The translations under genes were made by a program, and so were the position numbers. Shown piece after piece: positions 1 through 15,295 of a stretch of 64,000 bases of DNA. The DNA comes from Candidatus Zhuqueibacterota bacterium. Lineage in GTDB: Bacteria > Zhuqueibacterota > Zhuqueibacteria > Thermofontimicrobiales > Thermofontimicrobiaceae. Under the pieces are notes generated by a model that saw only the letters and a program-made list of their open reading frames with translations, searched no databases and was not told the DNA's origin. Position 1 is the first letter of the stretch, and every line of letters begins with the position of its first letter. The stretch is taken from positions 160,001 to 224,000 of the forward strand of contig JBMOPW010000032.1 of assembly GCA_049322915.1 (NCBI GenBank), given 5' to 3'.

Positions 1-2
1 TT

Positions 3-149
3 GATGACGGCGCCGTTTTTGATGGCCAATGCTCGATGCAGCAAGATGGCAAAATGCCGTTCGAGCCAAAAGTGAATCCGGTGGCAGGGAAATCAGGGCT
101 GAGCGTTGCAGGAAGCAATCCTGCTTCTACAGAGGAGAAGAAGAAATAA
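3..149 (+). CDS. Bactofilin (polymer-forming cytoskeletal protein), C-terminal fragment
   Basis: Frame 3 reads DDGAVFDGQCSMQQ...EEKKK*, matching the bactofilin C-terminal IxxGAxFxGxCxM motif; 5' end lies outside the window. Confidence 0.75.
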   Translation, partial: DDGAVFDGQCSMQQDGKMPFEPKVNPVAGKSGLSVAGSNPASTEEKKK

Positions 150-562: not shown

Positions 563-591
563 TTGACTAACAGGAAAAAAAGTTATATAAT
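563..591 (+). promoter_or_regulatory. Sigma70-type promoter of the TPR/ExbBD operon
   Basis: TTGACT-17 nt-TATAAT, about 60 nt upstream of the ATG at 650. Confidence 0.75.
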
Positions 592-649: not shown

Positions 650-3553
650 ATGAGAAAGAAGAATATCATTTTAAGTTTTCTTATGTGGATCATGTTTTTT
701 TCGTTCGATGCACCGGGTGTTACAGGGTCGGAACTGCCGGATAAATATAAAAAGGACGATGTGACAATCGATTTTGAATCGCGGTTGCGCTTCTACCTGG
801 ATTTGAAGACCAAACGATTCATGCGAAAGATGGCAGTGAAGGAAGGCGCGTTGCTTGAGATGATACGCAGCGTGACTGATGAAGTTCGCATCCGTGGCAA
901 GGCTGGATTTCTGGATGGCGACCCTGGTTTCAATTTGATCTACGGGAAAAGCAACAAGATTCTGGAAGAATTTGATGCTGAAATTGATTCGATAAAACAT
1001 ATTGTGAAGGAACTCGATAGGTTGGAATTGACCATTCAGCGGATGGAAGATCTCAAACTTTTGAAAGAGCTGGAACAAATCAAAGACCGATTGCTCACTG
1101 TGCTGGATGATCAAAAATTGGCCACAAAACAGTTGACGAAACAGCAAGTGGCCAGTATGATCGATGATTATTCCCATGAAATAAACCGCATCCTGAAAAT
1201 TTACGAGGAGATCGAAACCTTTCAGAAAAAAGCCAGGGGCTATGGTGATACAGAAATCGTGAAACAATTGGATCTGCAGAAACAGCACGTGATTCAAGTG
1301 CTCGAACAGAGTCGTATCGCCGGAACAGCGCCGGAGACAGTTGTCAATAGCTACATTGAGGAGGCGGCTTCAATTGTTGAAATTCTGCAACAGATCGATG
1401 ATCTGAATCAGAAGTTTGGCGTTGATTCGACAGTCAATACAGATGTTGAATCCGTGCGGGATAATATCATCGCCAATGTGGATGAACGCATATTCAAGCT
1501 GTTTGGCTATCAGACCGGGAAAGATTTCAGCGGCGTCACCATCTCTGAACACTTCAACACCTGGAAATCCGAGCGCATTGCCGAATATCAATTGAAGCTC
1601 ACGCAATACCAGATTCTCCGAAAGAGTCTGATTCAGTCCGCGACTCCGCAGGAGCGAAACCGTATGTTGGAGCGCGAGATTACAAACGCTCTGCTCAATT
1701 ACTCTGAAGAGCGATACGAGCTTTCGGAATTATTATTCGCTGATATTTATGAAGCCTATGGCGAATATTTCCCGAATCTCGATGGTGTGATTTTCTACAG
1801 AAGTGAAGCGAATTACGCCAATCATTATTATGATGAAGCTATGGCCGGGTATCAAAAACTTATAACCGATTTCCCCCAATCCCAGTATGTGGGGCAATGT
1901 AACCTGCGGGTGGCAATGATCCATTACACGTATGGCGAGAATAGCCAATTCTTCGATTATTATAATAAGGTCTGGAATTCCACTGGCATAGAACCGGAGG
2001 ATCTGAATAACCTCCACTATCTTGCCGGCTATCTGTACCTGACAGATAGGCGCTTCAAAGACGCAGAAGCTGTTTTGTTGAATATTAAAGAAGATTCAAA
2101 ATACTATATGGCGGCCCAATATTTGCAAGGGATTGTCTTGACGAATCTGGAAAAATTTACCCAGGCAAAGGCAATATTTGAGAAACTGACGGATCAGCAA
2201 AACTATCCGTGGACGGACCTGAATACATCCATCATACGAAATGAGTCGCTTCTGAAATTGGGCTATATTCACTACCAGCATGGAGAATATCAGAAAGCAA
2301 GTCAATATTTCGACATGGTTTCCAAGGGCTACGATAGATATGATTCCAGCTTGTTAGCCAAGGCCTGGACCAATCTCAAAAAGGGCGAGTACGAGAATGC
2401 CATTTCCAACGTGGACTTGATTTGCAACAATTACTTACTCTCAAATTACACGTATGAAGCCCTGGTGTTATCGGCGCATTGCAAGCGTATTCAGAATCGG
2501 ACTGATGAAGCGATCAAGGATTTTCAATATGTGACCAATGCAAAGTATATCCTCAACCAGGTTCAGGAATATAACAAAGAGCGCGAGCATATTTTACAGC
2601 AATTGGATGAACTGGAAGTCCTCGAAGAGGATATTTTTGAACATCAAAATCAGCGTCTCTATCCCGAAGTCGTTCGAATCCGGGATGTGATCAATGACGC
2701 CCTGGTTGCTTTTCGGTTTCGAGGCGCAGCGAGCAGCCGGATGTTGGAGGGATACAACGACGAGCGCAAAATTCTCATTCGTCAGATTGAGGAATTTGAG
2801 CGAATCATTGAAATAGCTGATGCTGAAGGCGATGAAGAAATGAAGAAAGATGCCCTCCAACAAAAGAAACGTCTGGTTGCAGCGTTGGAAAATTTTCAGA
2901 CAGAAGAGTCTGTCTCTGGCGCCGAATATTTCATGGATTATCCTCTGGCCACCAAAGAGGGTGGTATTATTTACCGTCGCGGTATTGTGCAGAAATTATT
3001 GAGTGAACTGCTGGTAGAGAAACAGCGGGTTCAGGACGATCTGATCATAGTTTCGGAATTGATGTCCATCAATGAGGATAAACCGCGCATGGATGCGGCA
3101 ATTGATTTGGAGATAATTGAAGAAGAATTGCACGACTTGCAAAATCAATTGAATCAGTTTCAGGTGTATTTAGCCAATCACCAGGTCGAGCAGATTCACA
3201 CAAATGCAGAGCATTGGGCCGACCTCTCAGGATTTGGCTTGAGTGATTTGAACTATATGTCATATCACGAGAGAACCAAAAAGATATCCAGCTATTCAAA
3301 AAACCTCAATGAGATTGATGCGGTATTAGGCCAAAAAAGAAAGAGTCTGGAGGAGCGGATTTGGCGGTTTGACAATGAAGTGAAGAAGATACAGAAGGAG
3401 ATGGAAGCGGAAAAGACACGGCTGGAAAAATTAGAGAAAGAAAAATATTTCCAGGAAATCTATTTCGAGACGAAATCGAATGAAATTGATCTTCAGACAA
3501 ATGAGGAGTTTGAGGAGTTGAACTTCGAGAATGAAAGTGGGAAGAAATTTTAA
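650..3553 (+). CDS. Exported TPR/coiled-coil protein, GltC-like
   Basis: 967 aa; signal-peptide-like N-terminus; central TPR repeats (LKLGYIHYQHGEY...SLLAKAWT...YEALVLSAHC); long coiled coils on both sides. Confidence 0.75.
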   Translation: MRKKNIILSFLMWIMFFSFDAPGVTGSELPDKYKKDDVTIDFESRLRFYLDLKTKRFMRKMAVKEGALLEMIRSVTDEVRIRGKAGFLDGDPGFNLIYGKSNKILEEFDAEIDSIKHIVKELDRLELTIQRMEDLKLLKELEQIKDRLLTVLDDQKLATKQLTKQQVASMIDDYSHEINRILKIYEEIETFQKKARGYGDTEIVKQLDLQKQHVIQVLEQSRIAGTAPETVVNSYIEEAASIVEILQQIDDLNQKFGVDSTVNTDVESVRDNIIANVDERIFKLFGYQTGKDFSGVTISEHFNTWKSERIAEYQLKLTQYQILRKSLIQSATPQERNRMLEREITNALLNYSEERYELSELLFADIYEAYGEYFPNLDGVIFYRSEANYANHYYDEAMAGYQKLITDFPQSQYVGQCNLRVAMIHYTYGENSQFFDYYNKVWNSTGIEPEDLNNLHYLAGYLYLTDRRFKDAEAVLLNIKEDSKYYMAAQYLQGIVLTNLEKFTQAKAIFEKLTDQQNYPWTDLNTSIIRNESLLKLGYIHYQHGEYQKASQYFDMVSKGYDRYDSSLLAKAWTNLKKGEYENAISNVDLICNNYLLSNYTYEALVLSAHCKRIQNRTDEAIKDFQYVTNAKYILNQVQEYNKEREHILQQLDELEVLEEDIFEHQNQRLYPEVVRIRDVINDALVAFRFRGAASSRMLEGYNDERKILIRQIEEFERIIEIADAEGDEEMKKDALQQKKRLVAALENFQTEESVSGAEYFMDYPLATKEGGIIYRRGIVQKLLSELLVEKQRVQDDLIIVSELMSINEDKPRMDAAIDLEIIEEELHDLQNQLNQFQVYLANHQVEQIHTNAEHWADLSGFGLSDLNYMSYHERTKKISSYSKNLNEIDAVLGQKRKSLEERIWRFDNEVKKIQKEMEAEKTRLEKLEKEKYFQEIYFETKSNEIDLQTNEEFEELNFENESGKKF

Positions 3554-3583
3554 ATCAGGATGTTCACCTGATAGGGAAGGGAA

Positions 3584-6500
3584 ATGAAGAAGATAATTTT
3601 AATTGGCCTGTTTTTGGGGATGTTATTTTCGAGCCAACGGTGTTTTTCGCAACAGGAACCGCAAGAGGAAGGTCAGAAAAAAGCCGCGGTCGATTCGCTG
3701 ATCGATTCGTACTCGGTCGAGGATATTCTTAAATACCGGGAATACTATCAAAAACAGATCGAAAATATCACGGCTGAAAAGGTTGAGTTGCGCAAAAAGG
3801 GAATTCGCGATGCAGAAAAATTCCTTGAAAATAATCCGAATAGCAAGGTTCTGGATAAAGTGATGATGCGACTAGCCGAGTTGTATTATGAAGACGCCGA
3901 GGAGGAATTCATTCAGCAGATGCAGGCGTATGATCTGAAGTTAGAAGAGCTTGGCGATGCGCCAGCAGATACCACCCTTACGGAACCGGTAAAAAATTAT
4001 TCCAAGGCGTTAGGTCTGTACCAAATCATCATTGATGAATATCAACATAGCGAATTGTTAGACGATGCCTTATATAACAAAGCGTTCATCCTGGAGGAAA
4101 CGGGAAAAATTCAGGAAGCACTGACGATTTACAATTCAATCATCGCAGAATTCCAGGACAGTCGTTATGTACCCGAGTGTCTGATGCGAATTGCTGAGTA
4201 TTATTTCAATCCCCCAAAGAATGATATTGATACCGCCATCGACTATTATAAAAAAATTCTGGAATATAAAGATAGTCCCAAATATGACGAAGCCTTATAT
4301 CGTTTGGGCTGGTGCTATTATCGAAAGAGCGACTATCCTCTGGCAGTATCCTACTTCACCATTTTAGCTGACGATGTGCAGCGCGCCGGAGAGATCGATC
4401 CGGAGCAAAAGTTCTCCAATCCGGTGTTGCGCGATGAATCCATTGAATACATTGGTATCAGTTTTCTGGATTATGGCGGAACCGATCGGGCTGTGGATTA
4501 CCTGAATAGCATCGGCGGTCGTGACTATGGCGTGGATATTTTGAAGAAAATAGGCGATGTCTATTTGAACGAAAAGGAAATGTACGATCAGGCGGTTCAG
4601 GCTTATCAGACCTTGTTGAAGATGTACCCAGAAGATAAAGAAGCTCCGTTCATCCAGGATAAAATTGTGCTTTGCTACCGTCATCAGAATGATGATATGA
4701 TGGCCTACGTTGCCCGGGATAAACTATTCAACCATTACAAGCCGGGCAGCCCCTGGTGGCAGAATCAGCAAGATGAAACAATGAAGGAGAAAGTTTATGG
4801 TATAACGGAGCGTTCGTTACGCGATAATATCAATCTCCTTTTTCAACGCGCAGAAGCCGCCAATGATCAGGATCTGTACTTGCAGGCTGTCAACGATAGC
4901 CGGAAATATCTGAAATCGTTTGCCTCAGACAGCAGCGCGCCGCAAATTCATTGGAACATGGCGCTGACTCTGGATACCAAGCTGCATCAAACCGATGAAG
5001 CGTTTGAAGAGTACATGAAGATTTCCGATCTTTACTGGGGCAGCAAGTATCAAAAATATTCTGCTGAAAATTCCATCGCCCTGGCCAAAGATGCAGTGGA
5101 AACAGATACTTCGAAAAAGCAGATAGCGTCGGGAGAGACGGTCGCGGACTTGCAGAAAAAGGCCAGCAGTGTGCTGGAAGCGCTGGACTACGATCGCATG
5201 GAGTTCAGCGAGTACGAGAAGAAGTTATTGAGAGCTTATAATAATTATATCAAATTATTCCCCCATGAACCTGAGACCGCAACCATTCTGGCGAATGCCG
5301 GCGCTTTGAATTACAACAACAACCGGTTCCCGGAAGCGCTGCGGTATTTCAATACCATCATCAAACATTTCCCGGATAGCAAAGATGTGGATTACGCAAA
5401 ATACACCATCATGGAAAGTTATTTCGGGAAACGCGATTTTAAGAGCGCGGAAATCATCGCCAGAAATTTGAAGAACACCGAAGGCATCGATGCGAGTCTG
5501 GCGGATAAAGCGAAGAACCGATTGGCCGAATCCATTTTCCTCGCAGCAGAAGTGTTCGCAGATTCGGCGGATCATCTGCAGGCTGGCAATGAATATCTTC
5601 GCGTGGTCATGGAAGTCCCCAATGCAGAGTTTGCTGATCTGAGCGTTTTCAACGCGGCGCTGGAATATGACAAGGCCAAAGAATTCAGTCGCGCCGTGGA
5701 GACGTACAATTATCTGATCGAGACGCGACCCAATTCAAAATATCTGCTGGATGCCATGAATAACCTAGCCATCGATTACGGAGAACTGAAGGAATTCAAA
5801 AACGCGGCCCTGACGTATGAACGATTGGCGAATGCTGCCAAGGATTCCGCCCGGACCCACGATGCTTTATTCAATTCCAGCCTGTTCTTCGTGAAAGCGG
5901 AAGAATGGGAAGATGCCATTCGCATCAACCGGCAGTTTGTCCAGAAATATCCAAAGTCACAGGACGCCGATGATTTATTTTACGACATTGCCACTTATTA
6001 TTTGAAACTGGATGATCTGGATAAGGCAAATTCCCTCTATGGCGAATACGCCCAGTTATATCCCAATTCACCGCGCGTGATTGAAACATATTTCCATCGC
6101 GGTGAATATTATCGCAACAAGGACCTTCAGGCCCTGGCAAAGGGTGAATACGAAAAGGCAGTGGCCAAGAATACCGAATTTAAATCAAAGAATCTAGAGC
6201 AAAATGATTACTTCGCTGCAGAAGCGCTGTTTCAGTTAACACTACTGCATTTCGGTGAATTCAAAGCCATCGAATTCCAATTGCCGGTCGCGAAGATGGA
6301 ACAATCAAAATCACAAAAGCGGGGATTATTGATTAAGGTAGTGGATGGATTCACGCAGGTCGCGACGTTTGGAACGCTCCGATTGTACGAAGCAACATTT
6401 TATATCGGCGAGACCTATGATGAATTCGCCCGGTGCTGGGTGCGGCAGGAAATTCCTCAGATGGATGAAACCCGGCGCATCGTTACTCAGAAGGAAATCA

Positions 6501-8224
6501 ATAAAACCACGGCTGATCTGTACGAGAAAGCAGAGGAGTCCTACAAGCAAGCCGTGAGAATTCTGTCCCGCCTGGCGGATGAATATGAGCAGTCTCTGAT
6601 GACCGATTCGACAGCGCTGGCAGAAAACGAACTGACAAAGGTTGTTCGGGAAGATAGTACCCTGCGCGTGGCGCGCAAGTGGATCGATCGGAGCAAGGAG
6701 AAAATTTCCGAAGTCATTTATGATATTGCAGAGCTCAATTTTACTTCGGTGAATGGTTTTCTGGAAGCGCCCATTCCGGAAGGGCTGGATAATGTCGCTG
6801 AAATGGAGTACAGAAAACAAGTGCTGAGCAAAGCCATTGCTCCCTTGATTCAGGAAATTGTCGATGCCCATGTCCGCAATGTTCGCGAGGGCTGGAACCT
6901 GGGACTGGAAAACCAGTGGGTGAAATTATCCCGGCGTAAAATTCTCACGACAAGCAATTTGCTGGCATCCGAATATTATTCCTTGGCTGAGAAGTCACTC
7001 AGGCTGTACCGCGAGAGTTCAGAAAATTATATCAAAACGACCCAACAGGGTGGCTCCGCCGAAGGCCTGGATGCGACGACACTCTCGGATCAAATGGCAA
7101 ACCTGATCGACTTTACGCGGGCGTTTTCTGCGGTGACCGTTGAGATGTATCGAAAGACGCTGGAAAGGGCCGTTGAAGAGAATATCAACGATCCGAGTGT
7201 CTCTGAGACGAAAGAAATCATGCTAAAGGACCTTTATACGATCAGTCAGGAGTGCAGCGAACTTGAAAAAACCTGTCGGAACAATCGTAAGAATTATGAA
7301 AAGCAGTTCAAAGAGACTGATAAAATCGAATATGAAGATGCGCTGTTCACATACGAGGATAATTATTTTGCCTTCAGAGAGGCCAATAAGGAATTGTTGG
7401 AATTGGGCTACCAGATTGCACAGGACATGGAAATATCCAATCAGTGGGTTCCCAAAATTGTGCTGGCTCTGGTTCAGGCTAATCCCGAGGAATATGGCAA
7501 TCTGCTGAACCTGGAAGCGTCCACGACCCAGCATGCCACCAATGATAGCTGGAAAGCGACGACCCAATACACCGAGGGATGGACGCAACTCGAATTCAAT
7601 GACATCGACTGGTATACTGTTCAGCAGAAGTCGGGTGTGTTCCAGAATGCCGGCGAGGCGGATGTCGTTTGGCTTTCCGAGGTGGATACGACCGGGGTGG
7701 AATACGATACAACCGTAGTAACGGTACCAGTGATGACCGATACTTCCCTGAACGCCGAAGTTTTACCGGACTCATCGCTCAGCGACTCCAGCCGACTGGC
7801 TAACGAGACAAAATACGTTGTGACCACACGACACTGTATGGAGAATATCCCGGCGCGTCGGGTATTTTTCAGAAAGAAATTTTCTGTTACGGGTTTGCCG
7901 GTTTCTGCCGATATAAAAATAAAAGTGGATGATTCCTACAACTTGTTTTTGAACGGAGAATATGTGGCGGCGTTTGCCCAGGAAGACACGATGTCGGTGG
8001 ATCAGGAGCATTTTCATGAACTGACTGAAATTCTCGTCGAAGGCGATAATGTGCTGGCCATTGAGGGAATTGATAATAACGCCACCGGAGGTGGATTGGT
8101 AGCAGCGGTCTCGGTGAAAGCATTGCCGGAATGGAATGATAAAAAGCAGCAAATACAGATTGAGACAAGTGATATAAAAATTAAAAAGAATCTGGTGATG
8201 GATAAATACATTATCATGTATTAA
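3584..8224 (+). CDS. Giant exported TPR protein, GltD/AgmU-like, with C-terminal beta-sandwich (glycan-binding-like) domain
   Basis: 1546 aa; signal peptide; many TPRs (MRLAELYYE, RIAEYYF, ALYRLGWCYY); C-terminal FFRKKF...VDDSYNLFLNG...GDNVLAIEG. Confidence 0.75.
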   Translation: MKKIILIGLFLGMLFSSQRCFSQQEPQEEGQKKAAVDSLIDSYSVEDILKYREYYQKQIENITAEKVELRKKGIRDAEKFLENNPNSKVLDKVMMRLAELYYEDAEEEFIQQMQAYDLKLEELGDAPADTTLTEPVKNYSKALGLYQIIIDEYQHSELLDDALYNKAFILEETGKIQEALTIYNSIIAEFQDSRYVPECLMRIAEYYFNPPKNDIDTAIDYYKKILEYKDSPKYDEALYRLGWCYYRKSDYPLAVSYFTILADDVQRAGEIDPEQKFSNPVLRDESIEYIGISFLDYGGTDRAVDYLNSIGGRDYGVDILKKIGDVYLNEKEMYDQAVQAYQTLLKMYPEDKEAPFIQDKIVLCYRHQNDDMMAYVARDKLFNHYKPGSPWWQNQQDETMKEKVYGITERSLRDNINLLFQRAEAANDQDLYLQAVNDSRKYLKSFASDSSAPQIHWNMALTLDTKLHQTDEAFEEYMKISDLYWGSKYQKYSAENSIALAKDAVETDTSKKQIASGETVADLQKKASSVLEALDYDRMEFSEYEKKLLRAYNNYIKLFPHEPETATILANAGALNYNNNRFPEALRYFNTIIKHFPDSKDVDYAKYTIMESYFGKRDFKSAEIIARNLKNTEGIDASLADKAKNRLAESIFLAAEVFADSADHLQAGNEYLRVVMEVPNAEFADLSVFNAALEYDKAKEFSRAVETYNYLIETRPNSKYLLDAMNNLAIDYGELKEFKNAALTYERLANAAKDSARTHDALFNSSLFFVKAEEWEDAIRINRQFVQKYPKSQDADDLFYDIATYYLKLDDLDKANSLYGEYAQLYPNSPRVIETYFHRGEYYRNKDLQALAKGEYEKAVAKNTEFKSKNLEQNDYFAAEALFQLTLLHFGEFKAIEFQLPVAKMEQSKSQKRGLLIKVVDGFTQVATFGTLRLYEATFYIGETYDEFARCWVRQEIPQMDETRRIVTQKEINKTTADLYEKAEESYKQAVRILSRLADEYEQSLMTDSTALAENELTKVVREDSTLRVARKWIDRSKEKISEVIYDIAELNFTSVNGFLEAPIPEGLDNVAEMEYRKQVLSKAIAPLIQEIVDAHVRNVREGWNLGLENQWVKLSRRKILTTSNLLASEYYSLAEKSLRLYRESSENYIKTTQQGGSAEGLDATTLSDQMANLIDFTRAFSAVTVEMYRKTLERAVEENINDPSVSETKEIMLKDLYTISQECSELEKTCRNNRKNYEKQFKETDKIEYEDALFTYEDNYFAFREANKELLELGYQIAQDMEISNQWVPKIVLALVQANPEEYGNLLNLEASTTQHATNDSWKATTQYTEGWTQLEFNDIDWYTVQQKSGVFQNAGEADVVWLSEVDTTGVEYDTTVVTVPVMTDTSLNAEVLPDSSLSDSSRLANETKYVVTTRHCMENIPARRVFFRKKFSVTGLPVSADIKIKVDDSYNLFLNGEYVAAFAQEDTMSVDQEHFHELTEILVEGDNVLAIEGIDNNATGGGLVAAVSVKALPEWNDKKQQIQIETSDIKIKKNLVMDKYIIMY

Positions 8225-8237
8225 GAGGTGGTGTTTC

Positions 8238-8657
8238 ATGACTCGATGGAAAAAAGGAACATGGATTTTTTATGCTGCGTGGCTGTGCGTTTGTTCACCC
8301 GTAATAGTCACGGCCCAGGTAAGCAATCAGAATGCCAGTTCGGTCAATTCAGCCCGGGCAAAACAGGATTCAACGCTGCGCGTTATGGCTGATTCACTGG
8401 CATCATTGGGTGATGAAATTGAACTGCTGGAAATCAGCATCGAAGCTGTGATCGAAAAACCTCGAGTGTCAATTCTTCCGAAACGAGTCGAACCGGCATT
8501 AGGCGAGATGGATTTCGTTGACCGGTCCTTTGAAAGCGAACTGAAGCAGGTTCCTGATAAGCCCATGGTAACGGATGAACGTCTCTACACACCAAAGAAA
8601 ATTGAAAATCTTAAAGCGAAACTTCTTTCAAAGAAGAGAGAATTGGAGAAAAAGTAA
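8238..8657 (+). CDS. Small exported protein, GltF/CglF-like
   Basis: Signal peptide; IELLEISIEAVIEKPRVSILPKR...DRSF resembles the CglF IxIEGxxxKP...R pattern; lies between the TPR and motor genes. Confidence 0.55.
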   Translation: MTRWKKGTWIFYAAWLCVCSPVIVTAQVSNQNASSVNSARAKQDSTLRVMADSLASLGDEIELLEISIEAVIEKPRVSILPKRVEPALGEMDFVDRSFESELKQVPDKPMVTDERLYTPKKIENLKAKLLSKKRELEKK

Positions 8658-8813
8658 AGTTCTAAAACACGAGAAAGACCTTCCCTTTTCATTTTGAGAA
8701 ATTCAGTCAGCATGAATAACAACCGTGGAGAAATTTCCAGGGGAGGTCTTTCTATTTTAATCAGTTAACAAAGAAATAATTTACATGTAACTTAAATCAA
8801 TGATGGAGGTAGT

Positions 8814-9467
8814 ATGATTGGTGAAGTATTAAAAGGGTTTGCCACCACAGAGATGGGATGGGGATTCATGTGGGTCCTCTTGCTTTTCTTCATCGTTATG
8901 GTTGCTGTTGCCATTGAACGTGCGTATTACATCATGGTGCGGTCCAATATCAACGCGCCGCGATTCATGTCCGAGATTCGGAAGTTGGTGAAAGCCGGCG
9001 ATTACAAGAAAGCATTGTCCCTGTGCAGTTCCGCCCGGAACAAAGCTCTGGCCCAGGTTGTAGCTGCTGGTTTGAAAAAAGTGAGCGAAAGTGAAACGAT
9101 TGATTTTCGCTCCATTCAGAATTCGGTGGATGAAGGCACTCTGGAAGTGATTCCCAAGCTTCAGGATAGGACGTCCTATCTGGCAATGATTGCCAACATT
9201 GCAACACTGACCGGTCTGATGGGAACCATCTATGGCCTCATCGGAGCATTCAGAGCGGTATCAGCGCCTGGAATCGATGCCACTGAAAAATCCCGAATGC
9301 TGGCTTCGGGTATTGCAGTTGCTATGAACACAACACTGGTGGGTCTGGCAATTGCGATTCCAGCCATTCTTATTTACACGTATTTGCAGAGCAAGACTGT
9401 AAAAATCATCGATGAAATCGATGAGCATACGGTGAAGTTAATTAACCTAATTACAGGGAATCAATAA
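8814..9467 (+). CDS. MotA/TolQ/ExbB proton channel protein (AglR-like)
   Basis: Three TM segments; ANIATLTGLMGTIYGLI and GIAVAMNTTLVGL motifs; GGAGG RBS. Confidence 0.92.
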   Translation: MIGEVLKGFATTEMGWGFMWVLLLFFIVMVAVAIERAYYIMVRSNINAPRFMSEIRKLVKAGDYKKALSLCSSARNKALAQVVAAGLKKVSESETIDFRSIQNSVDEGTLEVIPKLQDRTSYLAMIANIATLTGLMGTIYGLIGAFRAVSAPGIDATEKSRMLASGIAVAMNTTLVGLAIAIPAILIYTYLQSKTVKIIDEIDEHTVKLINLITGNQ

Positions 9468-9469
9468 CA

Positions 9470-10006
9470 ATGGCTTTCAGACCTTCATTCAGAAGAAATG
9501 TAACTCAAGAGGAAGCGGAATTAAATATGACTCCGGTGATGAATTTAATGGTCTGTCTCATCCCATTACTTCTCACATCGGCTCAATTCATAAAAATTGG
9601 GATCATCGATTTGAATTTGCCGCCAGCCATTGGCGCTTCAGTGAGTCAGATGGAAGCGCCAAAAGAGACCGAGAAAAAGTTGGATCTGGCTGTGACCATT
9701 ACAGATGAAGGCTTTTTTATCTCAAGTTCCCTTGCTATTTTACGAGGGAGTGAGGGCGAAGGGCCTTCCATTCCGTTGATGACAGATGGCGAATACAATT
9801 TTGTGGAGTTATCCAATAAGTTATATGAATTGAAGCGCAAGGCGATTGGTAACTTCTCGGATACGGAGAAAATTGTCATTCAGGCAGAACCGGAAATTAA
9901 TTACCAACTGGTAGTGAATACGCTGGATGCCGCCCGTAACATTTCGGTGGAAGGGAAAACTTTCTCACTGTTTCCGGAAGTATCTCTGGCCGCTGGAGTC
10001 ATTTAA
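9470..10006 (+). CDS. ExbD/TolR family protein (AglQ-like), TM Asp replaced by Asn
   Basis: ELNMTPVMNLMVCLIPLLL TM; IVIQAEPEINYQLVVNTLDAAR periplasmic motif. Confidence 0.88.
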   Translation: MAFRPSFRRNVTQEEAELNMTPVMNLMVCLIPLLLTSAQFIKIGIIDLNLPPAIGASVSQMEAPKETEKKLDLAVTITDEGFFISSSLAILRGSEGEGPSIPLMTDGEYNFVELSNKLYELKRKAIGNFSDTEKIVIQAEPEINYQLVVNTLDAARNISVEGKTFSLFPEVSLAAGVI

Positions 10007-10205
10007 TTTCAGAAGTCCCGGAAGTCGTCCTGACCAAAACCAAACTGGGTTGAAACATCAGCCACAGCACGTGGAGGTTTTGTGCGTTCGCACTTCTTGT
10101 GATGAATTGAGGCCGGGACGATTCAAGTATATTTAAGTGGCACATTCCATGCAAATTAGAAGAAATTTAATGCAGAAACAATTACATTTATAATTGGAGA
10201 AGCTA

Positions 10206-10700
10206 ATGGCTTTTATACCTTCTCGAATCAAAAAACATGACACAAATGCCGGAGCAGTCAAAGTCAATTTAACATCGATGATGGATATGTTCACAATAAT
10301 CCTTGTGTTCCTGTTGAAAACATTTTCAGCGGAAGGATCGCTCATCCAACCATCGGAGTATCTGACTTTGCCGCACTCAGGCACAGAAAAACAGCCTGAA
10401 ATAGCTCTGGATGTTGTTGTGTCCAAGGAATGGATCATGGTGAACCATGAACCAGTTGAAAAGGTGAGCAATGTTCAAAACCAGAGAAGTTTGATCATCA
10501 AAAATCTTCAGGATAAATTATCCGTCTATGCCCGGGAGTCCAGGCGAATGGAAGAATTACATGGGATCAAGTTCTCCGGCAAGGTAGCCATACAGGGGGA
10601 CAAGGAAATCCCTTACAGTCTGTTAGTTAAGGTGATGGCGACATGTGGAAAATCAGATTATCCGAATATGCGACTGGTTGTGTATAAAAAGGGAGAGTAA
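10206..10700 (+). CDS. ExbD/TolR family protein (AglS-like)
   Basis: NLTSMMDMFTIILVFLLK TM; IQGDKEIPYSLLVKVMATC; start moved to ATG 10206 after a GGAG RBS. Confidence 0.9.
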   Translation: MAFIPSRIKKHDTNAGAVKVNLTSMMDMFTIILVFLLKTFSAEGSLIQPSEYLTLPHSGTEKQPEIALDVVVSKEWIMVNHEPVEKVSNVQNQRSLIIKNLQDKLSVYARESRRMEELHGIKFSGKVAIQGDKEIPYSLLVKVMATCGKSDYPNMRLVVYKKGE

Positions 10701-10718
10701 CTGGAAGATTTGGAATAA

Positions 10719-11906
10719 ATGGACGAGGTCGATGTGAACAATCAAGGTAAAAATCCGCCGTTGGAGAAGAACGGAGACATTGGTTCGGATGCGAGCGCAT
10801 CAACCGGCGATATCTACGCATCTGGATATTTTCCAAAAGAGTTCGAACGACGATGGAGTGATTTAATTGATAAGCGATACTATACGATATTATTAATCAC
10901 TTTCGTTGTCAATTTTTCCATTGTTTTTTATTATTCGTTAAATCCGCCGGTGATAAATGTCGAAGCTGAAAGCGCCCGAATTCAGCAGCAGTATGCGCGT
11001 CTGGTGCTGGATAAAACCGAGCCGCTGGAAGAACCTGCCGAAAAAACAGAAGCTCTGCCAGTGGAGGAATTGAAAAGTGATAAAACTGTAGCTGGCAGTG
11101 GCGGAGAAGGCAGTGGTAGCGGCAGTGGATCGGGAGATGAAAAAGCCGAACAGGCTGCTGAGACTCGGGTTGGAACAGTCGAGTCGCGTCGTGCTGATTA
11201 TTCTTCGGAAACTGAAAAACGCCGTACATCCCGCGAGCAAATTTCCCGCGAAGTGAGTTCCAAAGGCTTATTGGGTTTGCTCACCAGCGATGGCGGAACA
11301 GCCACGGGCGAGGGGGTGGCGGACGTGCTGGGTGATGCCGGCTCTGGAAGCCAGAAAAATCTGGATGAGGTTTTGGGCAATCTCGATGGGCTAAAAACAA
11401 CGGGCCAATCAACCTCAGGGTCTGGCGGTTCTGGCACAGGCTCCGGTTCAGGTGACCGATCGCAACGCGGCGGACGCGCAGCCGGGGGTGGTGGCATTGA
11501 TGATTTGATCAGCGGAAAGGAAGAGGCAAAATCAGCCCAGATTTCCCGCAAAGGAAATATTGTCGTTGAAAAGGTTTCTTCCATCGCCGACGAAAAAGGC
11601 ATCAAGTCGGAGAGTCGCGATGCGGACAAAGTGTCCGAAGTGATCAACGCGCACAACGCCGCCATTCAATATTGTTATCAGAGAGAACTCAAACAAAATC
11701 CTGATCTGAAAGGTAAGCTGGTGGTCCGATTCACGATTATGCCCAATGGCAAAACAACGAATGTGAAAATTGTATCGTCCACATTGAACAATTCGCGTGT
11801 GGAACGCTGTATCATCAGTCGGATCGAGCGATGGGACGATTTCGGCGTCATCGATGCATCCAAGGGAGACGCCACATTTAGACAGGTTTATACATTCGGG
11901 TATTGA
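10719..11906 (+). CDS. TonB-like protein with AgmX/PglI-type C-terminal domain (GltG-like)
   Basis: Single TM, Gly/Ser-rich linker, C-terminal IQYCYQRELKQNPDLKGKLVVRFTI...VERCI...YTF. Confidence 0.85.
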   Translation: MDEVDVNNQGKNPPLEKNGDIGSDASASTGDIYASGYFPKEFERRWSDLIDKRYYTILLITFVVNFSIVFYYSLNPPVINVEAESARIQQQYARLVLDKTEPLEEPAEKTEALPVEELKSDKTVAGSGGEGSGSGSGSGDEKAEQAAETRVGTVESRRADYSSETEKRRTSREQISREVSSKGLLGLLTSDGGTATGEGVADVLGDAGSGSQKNLDEVLGNLDGLKTTGQSTSGSGGSGTGSGSGDRSQRGGRAAGGGGIDDLISGKEEAKSAQISRKGNIVVEKVSSIADEKGIKSESRDADKVSEVINAHNAAIQYCYQRELKQNPDLKGKLVVRFTIMPNGKTTNVKIVSSTLNNSRVERCIISRIERWDDFGVIDASKGDATFRQVYTFGY

Positions 11907-12006
11907 TGAAGCCTTACAGTTCGTACCCAATAGATTTGGTCTCGTGGCGGTTGACCTGATCATTCCATCCTCGTCATTTATAAAACATTTATATTCTGCA
12001 AATTAA

Positions 12007-12039
12007 GTCGCTGGATATTTTATCCGGCGATTTTTTTTT
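12007..12039 (+). terminator. Rho-independent terminator closing the motor operon
   Basis: GTCGCTGGATA/TATCCGGCGAT stem followed by a T run. Confidence 0.8.
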
Positions 12040-12148
12040 GGATTATCAGTATGAAAATGAAATTGATATTGATTTTACTAAATAATTTAGTTAAATTGAA
12101 CGTTCAAAATTGGGGTGTAACAACTATCTCTGAAAAAGGAAATTTGCA

Positions 12149-13936
12149 TTGAAAACGCTTTTCATGGAAAAACGAACGCACCACTGCGGAGATCTGAGGG
12201 GAGCCCACGCCGGACAATCAGTCGTCCTGCAAGGATGGGTAAGTCGCCGACGGGATCACGGTAATTTAATCTTTATTGATCTTCGCGATATTCACGGCAT
12301 CACCCAAATTGTATTTGACCCGATTGAGAGAGATTCTGCTTACTCTGCGGCGAAAGAGTTGAAGCAGGAGTATGTCATTAGCGTAACCGGTCAGGTGAGG
12401 CTGCGGCCGGAGGGCATGGTCAATGAAAATATGGCGACCGGGGAGATTGAAGTTCTGGCCACCGGGATCAGCGTGTTAAACCCTTCGAAGACACCGCCAT
12501 TTCTCATCGTGGACAATGTGGATGCCACCGAAGAGTTGAGATTCCGCTATCGTTATCTGGATTTGCGTCGGCCTGAAATGCAGAAGAGCTTAATCGTACG
12601 GCATCGCGTCGCCCAGATTGTGAGGCGCGCGCTGGATGAACAGGGATTCCTCGAAATCGAGACGCCATTTCTGATGCGCAGCACCCCCGAAGGCGCGCGT
12701 GATTTTCTCATCCCGAGTCGCATGCATCGAGGGAAGTTTTATGCCCTTCCTCAGTCGCCGCAAACGTACAAACAGGTATTGATGATTGCTGGCTATGATA
12801 AATATTTTCAGATTGTCAAATGTTTCCGTGATGAGGATTTTCGCTCCGAACGACAGCCTGAATTTACCCAGATTGATATTGAAATGTCGTTCGTCGATGA
12901 ATACGATATTCGTCAGGTCACTGAAGGACTGGTTAGGAAAATTTTTAAGGACATCGTCCAGGTCGAGTTTAAGACACCTTTCCCAGTGTTGACCTATGAA
13001 ATGGCGATGGCGAAGTACGGGTCCGATAAGCCGGACCTTCGCTTCGGTTTGGAAATTCACGACCTGAGTCACATTGTAGCCTGCAGTGAATTCAAAGTAT
13101 TTTCAGGGACAGTGGCGGATGGTGGAATTATTGCAGCGGTGAATCTTAAAGGCAGAGCCGACTATTCCCGGAAGCAAATTGATGAACTAAATCTGTTCAT
13201 CCAGAATATGGGCGGGAAGGGTGTGTTGACGGCGAAAGTCAAAGAGAACGATGTAGAAGGGTCATTCCGAAAATTCCTTTCCGATGCGATGGTCTCCGAG
13301 ATGCTCAGGGTGATGGGCGGCGAGTCCGGCGATTTGTTGATACTCATCGCGGGTAGTCGGGCTGCCACGCTGGATATGCTGGGGCGGTTGCGTTTAAAAC
13401 TGGGAAAAGACGAAGGACTGATCGATTCCAATTCCTTTTCTCCGCTGTGGGTGATTGATTTTCCATTATTGGAATACAGTGAGGAAGAGCAGCGATTTAT
13501 CGCCATGCATCATCCGTTCACTTCGCCGAAGGTTGAAGATATTGAATTATTTGAAAAAGATCCATTACAGATGAAAGCCCGGGCGTACGATTTAGTCATC
13601 AATGGATACGAGATCGCCGGGGGGAGCATCAGAAATTATATATATGAAAACCAGATGAAGGTTTTCTCATTGCTCAAGATTGATGAAGCCGAAGCCCAGA
13701 GCAAATTCGGATTTTTACTGGATGCTTTGCAATATGGCGCGCCACCGCACGGCGGCATCGCTTTTGGCTTTGACCGGCTGGTGATGCTGTTGGCCGGGAA
13801 AAATTCCATTCGGGATGTGATCGCATTCCCGAAAACGACGAGCGCACTGTCACTCATGGACAATTCACCGGCAGAGGTCGATGACGCGCAACTTCGAGAA
13901 TTGGGCTTGAAGGTGGTTGACAAAGAGCAGCCATAA
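12149..13936 (+). CDS. aspS: Aspartate-tRNA ligase, probably non-discriminating Asp/Asn type
   Basis: RRDHGNLIFIDLRD, RYRYLDLRR, LPQSPQ, GAPPHGGIAFGFDR; the His in RRDHG is typical of non-discriminating AspRS; start may be ATG 12164. Confidence 0.97.
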   Translation: MKTLFMEKRTHHCGDLRGAHAGQSVVLQGWVSRRRDHGNLIFIDLRDIHGITQIVFDPIERDSAYSAAKELKQEYVISVTGQVRLRPEGMVNENMATGEIEVLATGISVLNPSKTPPFLIVDNVDATEELRFRYRYLDLRRPEMQKSLIVRHRVAQIVRRALDEQGFLEIETPFLMRSTPEGARDFLIPSRMHRGKFYALPQSPQTYKQVLMIAGYDKYFQIVKCFRDEDFRSERQPEFTQIDIEMSFVDEYDIRQVTEGLVRKIFKDIVQVEFKTPFPVLTYEMAMAKYGSDKPDLRFGLEIHDLSHIVACSEFKVFSGTVADGGIIAAVNLKGRADYSRKQIDELNLFIQNMGGKGVLTAKVKENDVEGSFRKFLSDAMVSEMLRVMGGESGDLLILIAGSRAATLDMLGRLRLKLGKDEGLIDSNSFSPLWVIDFPLLEYSEEEQRFIAMHHPFTSPKVEDIELFEKDPLQMKARAYDLVINGYEIAGGSIRNYIYENQMKVFSLLKIDEAEAQSKFGFLLDALQYGAPPHGGIAFGFDRLVMLLAGKNSIRDVIAFPKTTSALSLMDNSPAEVDDAQLRELGLKVVDKEQP

Positions 13937-13967
13937 TGAAAAAATCCCAGCGTATCAAATTTTTTCC

Positions 13968-13996
13968 TTGACTATTACTTTTTTTTTTGTTATTAT
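13968..13996 (+). promoter_or_regulatory. Sigma70-type promoter for the lipoprotein/LysM pair
   Basis: TTGACT-17 nt-TATTAT with TG extension. Confidence 0.6.
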
Positions 13997-14138
13997 TAAA
14001 CGATTTATTGGGTTAAATCTAATAAATTTGGTTGACACGATTGGCATGAATGATATTTGATACAAATACTGAATGGAGGGAAAAAGGTTTTTTTAATTTA
14101 AACGAATAATTCAATTTATGGAAGGAGGTGTTAACTTA

Positions 14139-14411
14139 ATGCGAAAGATGATGAGGACAATCATCGTGCTCATTTCAGTGGCGTGTTTAATTCTTTCTAT
14201 CACGCTGACCGGGTGCACGAAGCATCCGAATGAAGAACAGCGACAGGCGCTGGAAGAGCAAAAGAAGGCTGCCCTAGCAGCGGAAGAGCAGTTGGCGAAA
14301 CAGCAGCAAGTGAAAGCTGATCTCGAAAGAGAGCTGGCCGAGAAGAAACAGAAGTTAGAAGATGCTAAGAGCGAAAAAGAAGCAGTGAAAAATCGATTAA
14401 GCGGCATGTAA
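14139..14411 (+). CDS. Small coiled-coil lipoprotein
   Basis: Strong AAGGAGGTG RBS; lipobox LTGC; mature part is almost entirely heptad-like (ALEEQKKAALAAEEQLAK...). Confidence 0.85.
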   Translation: MRKMMRTIIVLISVACLILSITLTGCTKHPNEEQRQALEEQKKAALAAEEQLAKQQQVKADLERELAEKKQKLEDAKSEKEAVKNRLSGM

Positions 14412-14449
14412 AATTTTATCTCAAAAATTTCATTTGGAGGAAAATTTAA

Positions 14450-15295
14450 ATGAAAAATATCACCAAAATGGCTGCCGCCTTCGCACTGATTCTTTTATTT
14501 GTTCTTTCAGTGTCCTCTTTTGCACAAGAAAAAGAGATGACAATGGAAGAGTACAATGCTCAGATGGCAGAATGGGCAAAGAGAGAAGCAGATGCCAAAG
14601 CGGCTACAGTTCAGGTTAACGAAGAAATCGAAGCCCTGAAAAAACAGATCACCGAAGTAGATGGCGCCATCGTTGCAGAATGGCAAGAAATCTACACTCT
14701 GCTTGGTGTCGATGAAGCCGGCGTCAACGAGTACCGTTCCCAGTTAAACAGCCTTGAAAGTGAAATAGATGGATTGGCAAATCTTTCACCCGAAGAGCTG
14801 TACAAACGCCGCGCTGAGATCGATGCGCTGGAGCAAAAGCTGAACGGATTCAAACAGAGCAAAATCGCTTTGTTGAGTGAAATGCAAGATAAGCTTGCAA
14901 TGATTGAAGGGAAAATTGCCCAGTTGCGTGCCAGCCTTCCAAAAGCCGACTTTGATGAATACACCGTTATCAAAGGCGACTATCTCTGGAAAATCTCTGG
15001 TAAAGCCGATATCTATGGCGATCCCTATCAGTGGATGCGAATTTATACTTACAACAGAGAACAAATTAAAAATCCGGATCTGATTTATCCAGCTCAGATT
15101 TTCAAGATTCAGAGAAGCTGTGCCGATAACGAGTACCTCGTTGTAAAAGGTGACTGGTTGGCCAAAATCGCTGGCAAACCGGAAATCTACAATAACCCAA
15201 CTGCATGGACCAAGATTTTAGAAGCCAATAAAGATGTCATCACAGACAAGAATTTGATTTATCCCCATCAGGTTCTTATTCTGCCTGAAAAATAA
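14450..15295 (+). CDS. Exported coiled-coil protein with two LysM domains
   Basis: Signal peptide; YTVIKGDYLWKIS...NPDLIYPAQ and YLVVKGDWLAKIA...NLIYPHQVL. Confidence 0.92.
   Translation: MKNITKMAAAFALILLFVLSVSSFAQEKEMTMEEYNAQMAEWAKREADAKAATVQVNEEIEALKKQITEVDGAIVAEWQEIYTLLGVDEAGVNEYRSQLNSLESEIDGLANLSPEELYKRRAEIDALEQKLNGFKQSKIALLSEMQDKLAMIEGKIAQLRASLPKADFDEYTVIKGDYLWKISGKADIYGDPYQWMRIYTYNREQIKNPDLIYPAQIFKIQRSCADNEYLVVKGDWLAKIAGKPEIYNNPTAWTKILEANKDVITDKNLIYPHQVLILPEK

Follow-up and report, generated by a model that had tools for sequence, protein, structure and literature searches.

We analyzed a seven-gene operon in a 64,000-nucleotide stretch of a Candidatus Zhuqueibacterota genome (GCA_049322915.1, contig JBMOPW010000032.1, positions 160,001 to 224,000; herein the window). 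The window corresponds to C32:160001-224000 in our numbering of the assembly (G000; 6.25 Mb, 45 contigs, 96% complete). The operon encodes, in order, two giant tetratricopeptide repeat (TPR) proteins (P0001 and P0002), a small exported protein (P0003), a MotA/TolQ/ExbB-family motor subunit (P0004), two ExbD/TolR-like subunits (P0005 and P0006), and a TonB-like connector (P0007). We conclude that it probably belongs, as a KSB1 representative, to the Agl-Glt core complex family (Group B) and encodes a motor driven by the proton-motive force (PMF) and coupled to a periplasm-spanning transducer. Homologies, clade membership of the motor, conserved gene order, an Asp/Asn asymmetry in the ExbD-like subunits, signal peptides, and a predicted fold carry this assignment, and the data support an envelope task other than TonB-type import.

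Core complexes were described by Luciano et al. (2011, PLoS Genet, PMC3169522). As defined in the excerpted text, they comprise the Agl-Glt Group B genes gltC, gltD, gltE, gltG, aglR, aglQ, and aglS plus a small extra gene without homologs in Myxococcales, and their hosts include one betaproteobacterium, several Gammaproteobacteria, Geobacter, and Fibrobacter succinogenes, with duplication in some. The same excerpts give the function of the complex as unknown and argue that the core genes, present in non-gliders, are insufficient for motility. An earlier sequence-only reading of the window had presented a self-contained machine of gltC-gltD-gltF-aglR-aglQ-aglS-gltG type as a novelty outside the myxobacteria; that novelty was overstated, because such operons have been known since 2011.

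The motor falls in a clade of core-complex operons

With the motor protein as the query, 13,473 relatives passed an E limit of 0.001, and 102 passed one of 1e-30. An alignment of eight sequences then yielded 597 relatives in species-representative genomes, of which the best 80, retained along with their 10-kb flanks, were typed by BLAST with the proteins of both operons of this kind in the genome, that of the window and a paralogous one described below. These best 80 of 597 loci comprise 27 of window type, 10 of paralogous type, and 43 others. Window-type loci come from KSB1, Calditrichia, and Caldithrix metagenome-assembled genomes (MAGs), some records being labeled Cytophagia or Bacteroidota; the 43 others are from Myxococcota, “Deltaproteobacteria,” Bdellovibrionota, Nitrospinota, and Gammaproteobacteria, the last represented by Woeseiaceae (including two cultured Lentisalinibacter species), Acidiferrobacterales, and Chromatiales.

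Gene order is conserved across these loci. The full pattern, with a GltD-like gene upstream of the motor and, downstream, two ExbD-like genes and one of AgmX type, is present in 58 of the 79 related loci with a called motor (window type, 23 of 26; paralogous type, 9 of 10; other, 26 of 43). Misses lie mostly at contig ends; parts are missing far from any contig end in L083, L100, L112, and L113, and perhaps in L069. The gammaproteobacterial loci, with products of ∼630, 940, 210, 100, 215, 170, 165, and 310 amino acids, reproduce the pattern reported for Marinobacter.

A tree of 63 MotA/ExbB-family proteins (IQ-TREE quick search, LG+C20, 223 columns) was built from chosen loci, the paralogs of the window's own genome and of one Myxococcota (G151) and one Lentisalinibacter (G152) genome, and Escherichia coli TolQ and ExbB; 31 of the 80 loci and two very divergent MotA-like genes linked to type IX secretion were left out. 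Every operon-type motor and nothing else falls in one clade of 49 rows (Shimodaira–Hasegawa-like approximate likelihood ratio test [SH-aLRT] 99; stem, 0.71 changes per column), made up of 9 window-type, 8 paralogous-type, 12 gammaproteobacterial, and 11 Myxococcota-type rows and 9 from delta, Bdellovibrionota, and Nitrospinota loci. Outside it lie TolQ, ExbB, and 12 other paralogs (5 from the window's genome, 4 of G151, 2 of G152, and the second gene of locus L083). Three sets form single groups within the clade: window type (99), paralogous type (100), and Gammaproteobacteria (99). The window type stands beside the Myxococcota group with a support of 93, which is not a starred value. Forcing all MotA genes of the window's genome into one clade was rejected by 128 log-likelihood units (approximately unbiased [AU] test, p 1e-6). 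With a profile made from close relatives, operon-type motors reach 216 to 308 bits and all others 156 or less (TolQ, 72.8; ExbB, 61.8); the comparison is partly circular, but the gap is clear. The Agl-Glt-like rather than canonical Tol/Ton nature of the motor, as first proposed, is thus borne out by the clade and the AU test, and neither of the two outcomes set down beforehand as damaging, a motor grouping with canonical Tol/Ton systems and TPR proteins lacking specific similarity to GltC/GltD, was observed.

One of the paired ExbD-like subunits lacks the transmembrane aspartate

P0004 scores below the equivalog cut-offs for TolQ (66.8 of 221 bits) and ExbB (48.7 of 206 bits), and the ExbD-like subunits reach 25 to 26 of 127 bits against the TolR equivalog. 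In the column of E. coli TolR D23, P0005 carries Asn (PVMNLMV). The asymmetry is general: among 75 operons (73 loci and the two in this genome), Asn occupies this column of the first ExbD-like subunit in 72, with Ser in 1 and Asp in 2, while the second subunit has Asp in all 75, as do 10 of 10 control ExbD/TolR proteins. Because the first subunit is without the Asp, the pattern argues that the motor plug in these operons would be obligately heterodimeric and would carry protons at one site only. Whether AglQ and AglS of Myxococcus xanthus form hetero- or homodimers is, according to passages of a review (PMC9389320), an open point in the field. The P0006 reading frame opens at TTG 10194 (168 amino acids); ATG 10206 is the more likely true start, because GGAG precedes it and the N termini of orthologs (MAFIPSR) match.

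The connector carries an AgmX/PglI-type C-terminal domain

P0007 has a short cytoplasmic N terminus (∼55 residues), a hydrophobic helix at residues ∼53 through 75, a Gly/Ser/Glu-rich linker, and a C-terminal domain (residues 300 through 395). It matches the AgmX/PglI model, which is like the TonB C-terminal domain (CTD), with 93.6 bits (NF033768, cut-off 40) and the GltG equivalog model with 86.4 bits (NF033760, model positions 324 through 626 of 650 only), and lies below both TonB C-terminal cut-offs (TIGR01352, 24.9 vs. 27.1; TonB_C, 19.4 vs. 24.6), so that its description as GltG-like stands. With the GltJ model (NF033761), the match is confined to the common C-terminal domain (42 bits of 450), and no forkhead-associated (FHA) domain was found on P0007 in the family scan. 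Two cysteines of the C-terminal domain, C319 and C364, are invariant in 18 orthologs. As regards the GltG family more widely, the Myxococcota MAG G151 has a near-full-length GltG-like gene elsewhere in its genome (342 bits, model positions 3 through 647), and none of 121 genomes from the phylum of G151 matched the GltG model at an E limit of 1e-150.

A GltD-type scaffold with a predicted sugar-binding-type end

P0002 is colinear with the 988-residue TPR protein of the paralogous operon (23% identity over 910 residues, E 3e-62). Against GltD-position proteins of Myxococcota, Gammaproteobacteria, and delta-type loci it scores 113 to 177 bits over 780 to 910 residues in 7 of 11 matches, the remaining 4 being shorter or weaker (down to 88 bits); its paralog scores 107 to 223 bits against the same proteins. 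The generic TPR proteins of the genome reach at most 63 bits for P0002 (63 to 81 across both scaffolds). This colinearity over 800 to 900 residues upholds the GltD-like assignment. The YbgF/CpoB-type TPR_6 model (TIGR02795) reaches 104 bits as the sum of four stretches. Full-length homologs of P0002, 40 to 80% identical, are recorded as candidate division KSB1 bacterium or Calditrichaeota bacterium, in agreement with the type of organism suggested from sequence.

An AlphaFold2 model of P0002 residues 1097 through 1546 (23-row alignment; mean pLDDT [predicted local distance difference test], 81.4) shows these last 450 residues as a helical bundle, a disordered insert, and a β-sandwich. Compared with the PDB using Foldseek, the predicted sandwich matches the N-terminal sugar-binding domains of glycoside hydrolase family 2 β-glucuronidases/galactosidases and of α-L-rhamnosidases (E from 1e-4; ∼100 to 110 columns; root-mean-square deviation, 2.5 to 3.5), and a weak rhamnosidase family match lies at residues 1418 through 1513. 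The paralogous 988-residue scaffold lacks this end.

P0001 is a putative GltC-like protein: its operon position fits, and the similarity is of a generic TPR kind, with the GltC model (NF033756) giving 47.7 bits (cut-off 450) and YbgF-type TPR scoring higher, at 57 bits. Its central part is 25% identical over 312 residues to the 483-residue TPR protein of the paralogous operon. Orthologs of P0001 have signal peptides without a lipobox Cys; the window-type TPR proteins in general carry plain signal peptides, and the gammaproteobacterial GltD-position proteins carry lipoprotein signals.

P0003, taken at first for GltF, matched none of the Pfam or NCBIfam families even at an E limit of 0.1, and the candidate model NF033759 turned out to be TraA; with no sequence support, the GltF identity was dropped. 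P0003 matches instead the small “additional gene” that core complexes outside the myxobacteria carry. Across 19 window-type (type-1) operons the protein is conserved, with E73, P75, V77, R83, F98, and E101 invariant and a core after the signal peptide of the form I-E-x-x-I-E-K-P-x-V ... R ... S-F-x-x-E. After the signal peptide, a similar strand motif recurs in the small genes that occupy this place in the paralogous operon, in Gammaproteobacteria (∼99 amino acids), and in Myxococcota (∼80 amino acids); the small proteins of the two operons in this genome have only the short motif in common. Judged from these alignments, P0003 is a real conserved family, and because a similar motif recurs at the same position across clades it appears to correspond to the additional gene of Luciano et al. 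In the ESM Atlas, its best score was 0.82, below the level at which a match is meaningful, and a predicted complex of P0003 with the P0007 C-terminal domain scored 0.18 (mark, 0.32), which counts neither way.

Operon boundaries and gene neighborhood

The seven co-oriented reading frames and their families, as first listed, agree with the Pfam and NCBIfam matches, and the family scan of the operon and its flanks found no TonB-dependent receptor, TolB, or Pal gene in or beside it, so that the locus is, as had been noted, not a standard Ton or Tol locus. Coordinates are summarized in Table 1.

Table 1. Features of the operon (window coordinates)
Feature	Position	Strand	Basis or remark
Sigma-70-like promoter match, TTGACT-17-TATAAT	563..591	+	11/12 positions; consensus match only
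P0001, 967-aa exported coiled-coil/TPR protein, GltC position	650..3553	+	TPR_6/TPR_2 at residues 450-630
P0002, 1546-aa exported TPR scaffold, GltD position	3584..8224	+	TPR repeats; colinear alignments
P0002 C-terminal β-sandwich (predicted)	7520..8125	+	residues ∼1313-1326, 1425-1514; disordered insert 1367-1422
P0003, 139-aa small exported protein	8238..8657	+	signal-peptide-like N terminus; no family
P0004, 217-aa MotA/TolQ/ExbB-family proton-channel subunit, AglR position	8814..9467	+	PF01618, 88 bits
P0005, 178-aa first ExbD/TolR-like subunit	9470..10006	+	PF02472, 52 bits; Asn at transmembrane Asp position
P0006, 164-aa second ExbD/TolR-like subunit	10206..10700	+	PF02472, 54 bits; transmembrane Asp kept
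P0007, 395-aa GltG-like connector	10719..11906	+	AgmX/PglI domain, NF033768
Terminator-like hairpin and T run	12005..12043	+	13 pairs, 5 G-C, then TTTTTTGGAT; pattern match only

The operon (650 through 11906) had been described as bracketed by one promoter and one terminator. Both matches exist, the hairpin stem spanning 12005 through 12033; they are consensus matches only, and internal promoters are possible because gaps of 156 nt (8658 through 8813) and ∼199 nt (10007 through 10205) interrupt the operon. Over 14 kb, promoter-like sites (33 found vs. 24.1 expected from shuffles) and terminator-like sites (22 vs. 14.0) are both modestly enriched. The ∼199-nt gap between P0005 and P0006, in which no reading frame or obvious repeat was seen, has counterparts of 241 nt in L043 and 64 nt in L042; in 19 of the 20 other window-type loci measured the two ExbD-like genes lie 4 to 26 nt apart, and in L054 the called frames overlap by 62 nt.

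Directly upstream in this genome are parA, parB, an M23 peptidase gene, and a bactofilin gene (L149, G000:C32:145001-161000, 11851-15149, continuing into window 1-149, the bactofilin end); downstream lie aspS and then other housekeeping genes. Nine relative loci instead have atpD-atpC (six), a C25 peptidase gene (two), or an FGE-sulfatase-like gene (one) upstream, and the cell-division context suggested by parAB-M23-bactofilin was dropped because this neighborhood is not conserved among them. The downstream aspS is conserved in window-type loci too. Farther along, window positions 55119-56408 (+) encode a 429-residue ParA/MinD-like P-loop ATPase with an N-terminal GYF_2 domain.

Two forms of the system span the phylum

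In a search with P0002 (E up to 1e-20, with only three candidates scored per genome), GltD-like proteins turned up in 148 of the 151 genomes sampled from the GTDB phylum of the window, in all 105 high-quality genomes, and in all 93 genera; the counts include two unpublished genomes (G144 and G088), both matching, without which the figure is 146 of 149. A strong match (E at most 1e-110, equivalent to a window-type scaffold) occurs in 117 genomes. A further 31 have only weak, paralog-level matches (1e-27 to 1e-70); they include most of family f9, and several are nearly complete (some 96 to 100%). By these matches, at least one form is nearly universal in the phylum and the window type is not.

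The second form is the paralogous eight-gene operon of the same genome (L017, G000:C4:30001-46000, minus strand, 4495-13585), with products of 344 (head gene), 483 (TPR), 988 (TPR), 144 (small), 208 (MotA), 156 (ExbD), 169 (ExbD), and 456 (AgmX-type) amino acids; its motor is 40% identical to P0004. The head gene is predicted to encode a 12-strand outer-membrane β-barrel with a long C-terminal helix (pLDDT, 73), which in Foldseek matches FapF, NanC, OmpG, and porins (E down to 3.5e-10), and the barrel-headed arrangement recurs in 10 related loci. Paralogs of the barrel gene, 395 and 389 amino acids long, lie at G000:C44:89072-92030 (+) and G000:C16:222139-225472, each adjoining a protein of 483 to 514 residues with an OmpA/Pal-like peptidoglycan-binding C terminus.

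Orphan components occur as well. A third GltD-like TPR protein (G000:C7:217908-220961, minus strand; 1017 amino acids) is 29% identical over 984 residues to the 988-residue scaffold, and two GltG-like proteins (G000:C12:50328-51581 and G000:C16:267202-268374, both minus strand; 417 and 390 amino acids) are 32% identical to P0007 over nearly their full length. Their neighbors are unrelated and no motor lies beside them; these proteins might share the operon-encoded motors, much as several TonB proteins share one ExbBD. With a second operon and orphan GltD- and GltG-like genes in the genome, and no outer-membrane part in the operon, the description of the window operon as self-contained is doubtful.

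The genome has nine MotA/ExbB-family genes and four proteins above the AgmX/PglI cut-off. Three ordinary ExbB-ExbD-TonB sets have proper TonB_C proteins (L018, L019, and L020), and the plus strand of L017 carries an ExbB-ExbD pair without an identified TonB gene. Another uncharacterized motor-TPR combination is a TPR-MotA-ExbD-DUF4159 cluster (L021, G000:C14:313001-331000, 3673-13587, plus strand) encoding an 877-residue protein with a weak SlpA-barrel match, a 1042-residue TPR protein with a great many YbgF-type repeats (270 bits), MotA (265), ExbD (134), and two DUF4159 proteins. A divergent 310-residue MotA-like gene (L022, G000:C32:80001-100000, 10265-11197, minus strand) and a 525-residue one with a Big_1 domain, followed by two ExbD-like genes (L023, G000:C7:290001-305000, 8791-10368, plus strand), each adjoin a PorP/SprF-like gene and large proteins with type IX C-terminal sorting domains; they may represent motors linked to type IX cargo handling.

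Searches for parts of known systems gave the following. The CglB model (NF033757) had no match at E up to 0.001 in this genome and none in the control genomes either. No TolB passed its cut-off (TIGR02800; 0 of 50 weak PD40 matches in the genome), and BLAST with E. coli proteins found no tolQRAB-pal cluster, with the TolB and Pal queries hitting only PD40 repeats and OmpA-C ends of unlinked large proteins. One TolB-like 439-residue PD40/TPR gene (G000:C34:657741-659060) was rejected on account of unrelated neighbors and the lack of a Pal or a motor. The sequence-only reading had pointed to MglA/B and GltJ as genes to look for in the rest of the genome: a 169-residue MglB-like Roadblock protein (L151, G000:C14:70819-74088, 691-1839, minus strand; 82 bits, cut-off 200) does adjoin a 194-residue small GTPase, and GltJ appeared only through the C-terminal domain that it shares with P0007. 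Similar MglA/MglB-like pairs were matched in the Thermus and Deinococcus controls and are of a kind found in many non-gliders.

A model of the machine and its alternatives

By analogy with related motors, five copies of P0004 would surround one P0005 and one P0006, and, P0006 alone being protonatable, the plug would necessarily be a heterodimer, with one site for carrying protons. On this stator the P0007 transmembrane helix would ride in the manner of TolA or TonB, the flexible linker of ∼220 residues would cross the cell wall, and the disulfide-braced, TonB-CTD-like domain of P0007 would dock onto P0002, with P0001 and P0003 joining the scaffold. Motor cycles could thus be passed to P0002 as a periplasmic shaft whose sugar-binding-type end would grip or move a glycan, either cell wall or a polysaccharide of the outer membrane or surface. 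In this scheme the stoichiometry, the contacts, the force direction, and the cargo are inferred. A glycan-handling role is the most concrete hypothesis that the model suggests, because P0002 has a predicted sugar-binding-type domain and Agl-Nfs, which moves spore-coat glycan according to excerpts of PMC3858216, offers a precedent.

Several points weigh against placing the operon in the core complex family. The operon encodes no outer-membrane partner, and no GltE-like gene lies between scaffold and motor in the window or in 26 type-1 loci, unlike the gammaproteobacterial and Myxococcota loci, which have a GltE-type TPR lipoprotein with a lipobox. The GltC assignment of P0001 draws on operon position and generic TPR similarity. 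The Asn variant would set these operons apart from the gliding motor itself, because M. xanthus AglQ and AglS both keep the conserved Asp, according to passages of the review (PMC9389320). The motor tree was made by a quick method and has long branches among its outgroups; the group used in the AU test was named only after the tree was seen; and Myxococcota MAG operons stand in for M. xanthus and F. succinogenes, whose sequences are not among its rows. The tie to AglR proper accordingly runs through the tables of Luciano et al., NCBIfam GltG and AgmX models built on Myxococcales, and the Myxococcota MAGs, and the whole assignment is drawn here from genes and predicted structures.

The operon could instead be the substitute of this phylum for Tol-Pal, tethering or constricting the outer membrane and coordinating it with the cell wall in growth and division. 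The genome has neither a TolB equivalog nor a tolQRAB-pal cluster, P0002 is rich in YbgF/CpoB-type TPR_6 repeats, GltD-like proteins occur in 148 of 151 genomes of the phylum (105 of 105 high-quality ones), and the setting is a housekeeping one, with atpD-atpC upstream in six of nine relatives and aspS downstream. However, the window-type scaffold is only weakly matched in 31 of the 151 genomes; because these matches are of paralog level and some of the genomes are 96 to 100% complete, the window-type operon appears to be dispensable there. Gammaproteobacteria, moreover, carry the same kind of operon, and they also have Tol-Pal. The motor clade stands apart from TolQ, no TolB- or Pal-like partner is linked, and the upstream parAB-M23-bactofilin genes are not conserved neighbors. 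We consider this explanation unlikely.

The two remaining explanations fare worse. For a true surface-gliding machine like the M. xanthus focal-adhesion complex, the homologous motor, connector, and scaffold, the MglB-like gene beside a small GTPase, and the outer-membrane barrel heading the paralogous operon would all fit, but CglB has no match in a 96% complete genome, GltJ is present only as a shared C-terminal domain, and P0007, with ∼55 cytoplasmic residues and no FHA domain, is missing the link to the cytoplasmic platform described in excerpts of published work. The MglA/MglB-like pairs recur in the Thermus and Deinococcus controls, and excerpts of Luciano et al. (PMC3169522) hold that the core genes, which occur in non-gliders, are insufficient for motility. 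The evidence thus falls well short of gliding, which we regard as very improbable. Least credible of all is an ordinary ExbB-ExbD-TonB energizer of outer-membrane receptors encoded elsewhere. Membership of the MotA/ExbB, ExbD, and TonB-C superfamilies agrees with it, as does a gene order (ExbB-ExbD-ExbD-TonB) that is common in the superphylum and recurs in L020; yet the genome already has three proper TonB_C sets, P0007 is below both TonB cut-offs and above that of AgmX/PglI, the motor is in a separate clade, two giant TPR proteins are co-inherited throughout, and the first ExbD lacks an Asp that 10 of 10 control ExbD/TolR proteins keep.

Implications

Since 2011, no function has become known for the core complex that underlies Myxococcus gliding. 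As a member of that family, the window operon would make it a stable, almost phylum-wide feature of KSB1/Calditrichota in two paralogous forms. The clade-wide Asp/Asn asymmetry bears on the stoichiometry of AglQ/AglS-like subunits, an open point according to the excerpted review (PMC9389320), and the predicted sugar-binding-type domain of one form provides a concrete cargo hypothesis. The picture of which kinds of system exist is unchanged by this operon. As an outside chance, taken as one joint claim, the KSB1/Calditrichota core complex might be an ancient, vertically inherited envelope machine rather than a recent import from Deltaproteobacteria, in which a single-Asp stator drives a glycan-gripping shaft for coupling the outer membrane to the cell wall in the absence of a recognizable TolB-Pal. 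In that case, a widespread glycan-handling envelope motor would have been specialized late for gliding and spore-coat assembly in Myxococcus. No paper naming KSB1, Calditrichota, or Caldithrix with AglR or GltG is among the full-text matches listed. Relative to the literature read, the barrel-headed second operon, the phylum-wide spread, the Asn/Asp asymmetry, the P0003 family, the sugar-binding-type end, the connector cysteines, and the signal types are new.

Comparison with known systems

The closest counterparts are the core complexes themselves. The excerpted Table S3 of Luciano et al. (PMC3169522) lists for F. succinogenes Fisuc_1892 (746-residue TPR, GltC), 1893 (1292-residue TPR, GltD), 1894 (212-residue MotA/TolQ/ExbB, AglR), 1896 (164-residue ExbD, AglS), and 1897 (308-residue TonB family, GltG), and for Marinobacter products of 550, 939, and 162 amino acids, an unlisted gene, and products of 221, 176, 162, and 321; Saccharophagus homologs are labeled “cellulose binding, type IV.” The window operon shares with these a single co-oriented cluster, the same order (TPR, giant TPR, small gene or genes, MotA, two ExbD, TonB-like), and comparable gene sizes. 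Its motor is in one clade with such operons, and the system is duplicated within one genome, as the excerpts report for Fibrobacter. It differs in lacking the GltE-like gene discussed above, in its larger TPR proteins (967 and 1546 amino acids) with ordinary signal peptides, in the predicted helical bundle and sugar-binding-type β-sandwich added to the C terminus of its scaffold, and in being spread throughout a phylum rather than in the patchy way that a recent transfer would leave.

With the Agl-Glt and Agl-Nfs machines the window operon has in common an AglR/Q/S-type motor, a GltG-type connector of the AgmX/PglI kind, a GltD-type TPR shaft, and the same predicted logic of periplasmic force transfer. 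An AlphaFold model of the M. xanthus complex, in the excerpted text of PMC11761067, comprises AglR5-AglQ-AglS with GltG, whose linker is wrapped in a crevice of GltD and whose C-terminal domain sits on the GltD N terminus; the N-terminal FHA domain of GltG binds the cytoplasmic platform, and a bridging role is predicted for GltF. Unlike that machinery, the window operon has no CglB match, connector FHA domain, or outer-membrane barrels, nothing of GltJ beyond the shared domain, and Asn in the first ExbD-like subunit, where both AglQ and AglS have Asp according to the passages of PMC9389320. Tol-Pal resembles it in the PMF motor family of 5:2 type, in a TolA-like connector that combines a long linker with a small domain at its C terminus, and in CpoB/YbgF-type TPR; here, in contrast, there is no TolB or Pal, the two TolR-like subunits are distinct, the connector is of the AgmX/PglI type, and the motor is outside the TolQ clade. 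ExbB-ExbD-TonB systems belong to the same superfamilies and, in FCB-group (Fibrobacteres-Chlorobi-Bacteroidetes) bacteria, share the ExbB-ExbD-ExbD-TonB-like order, as in L020 of this genome, whereas the window operon has no receptor linkage and a TonB_C score below the cut-off and combines giant TPR partners with a motor of a separate clade and an Asn in its first ExbD.

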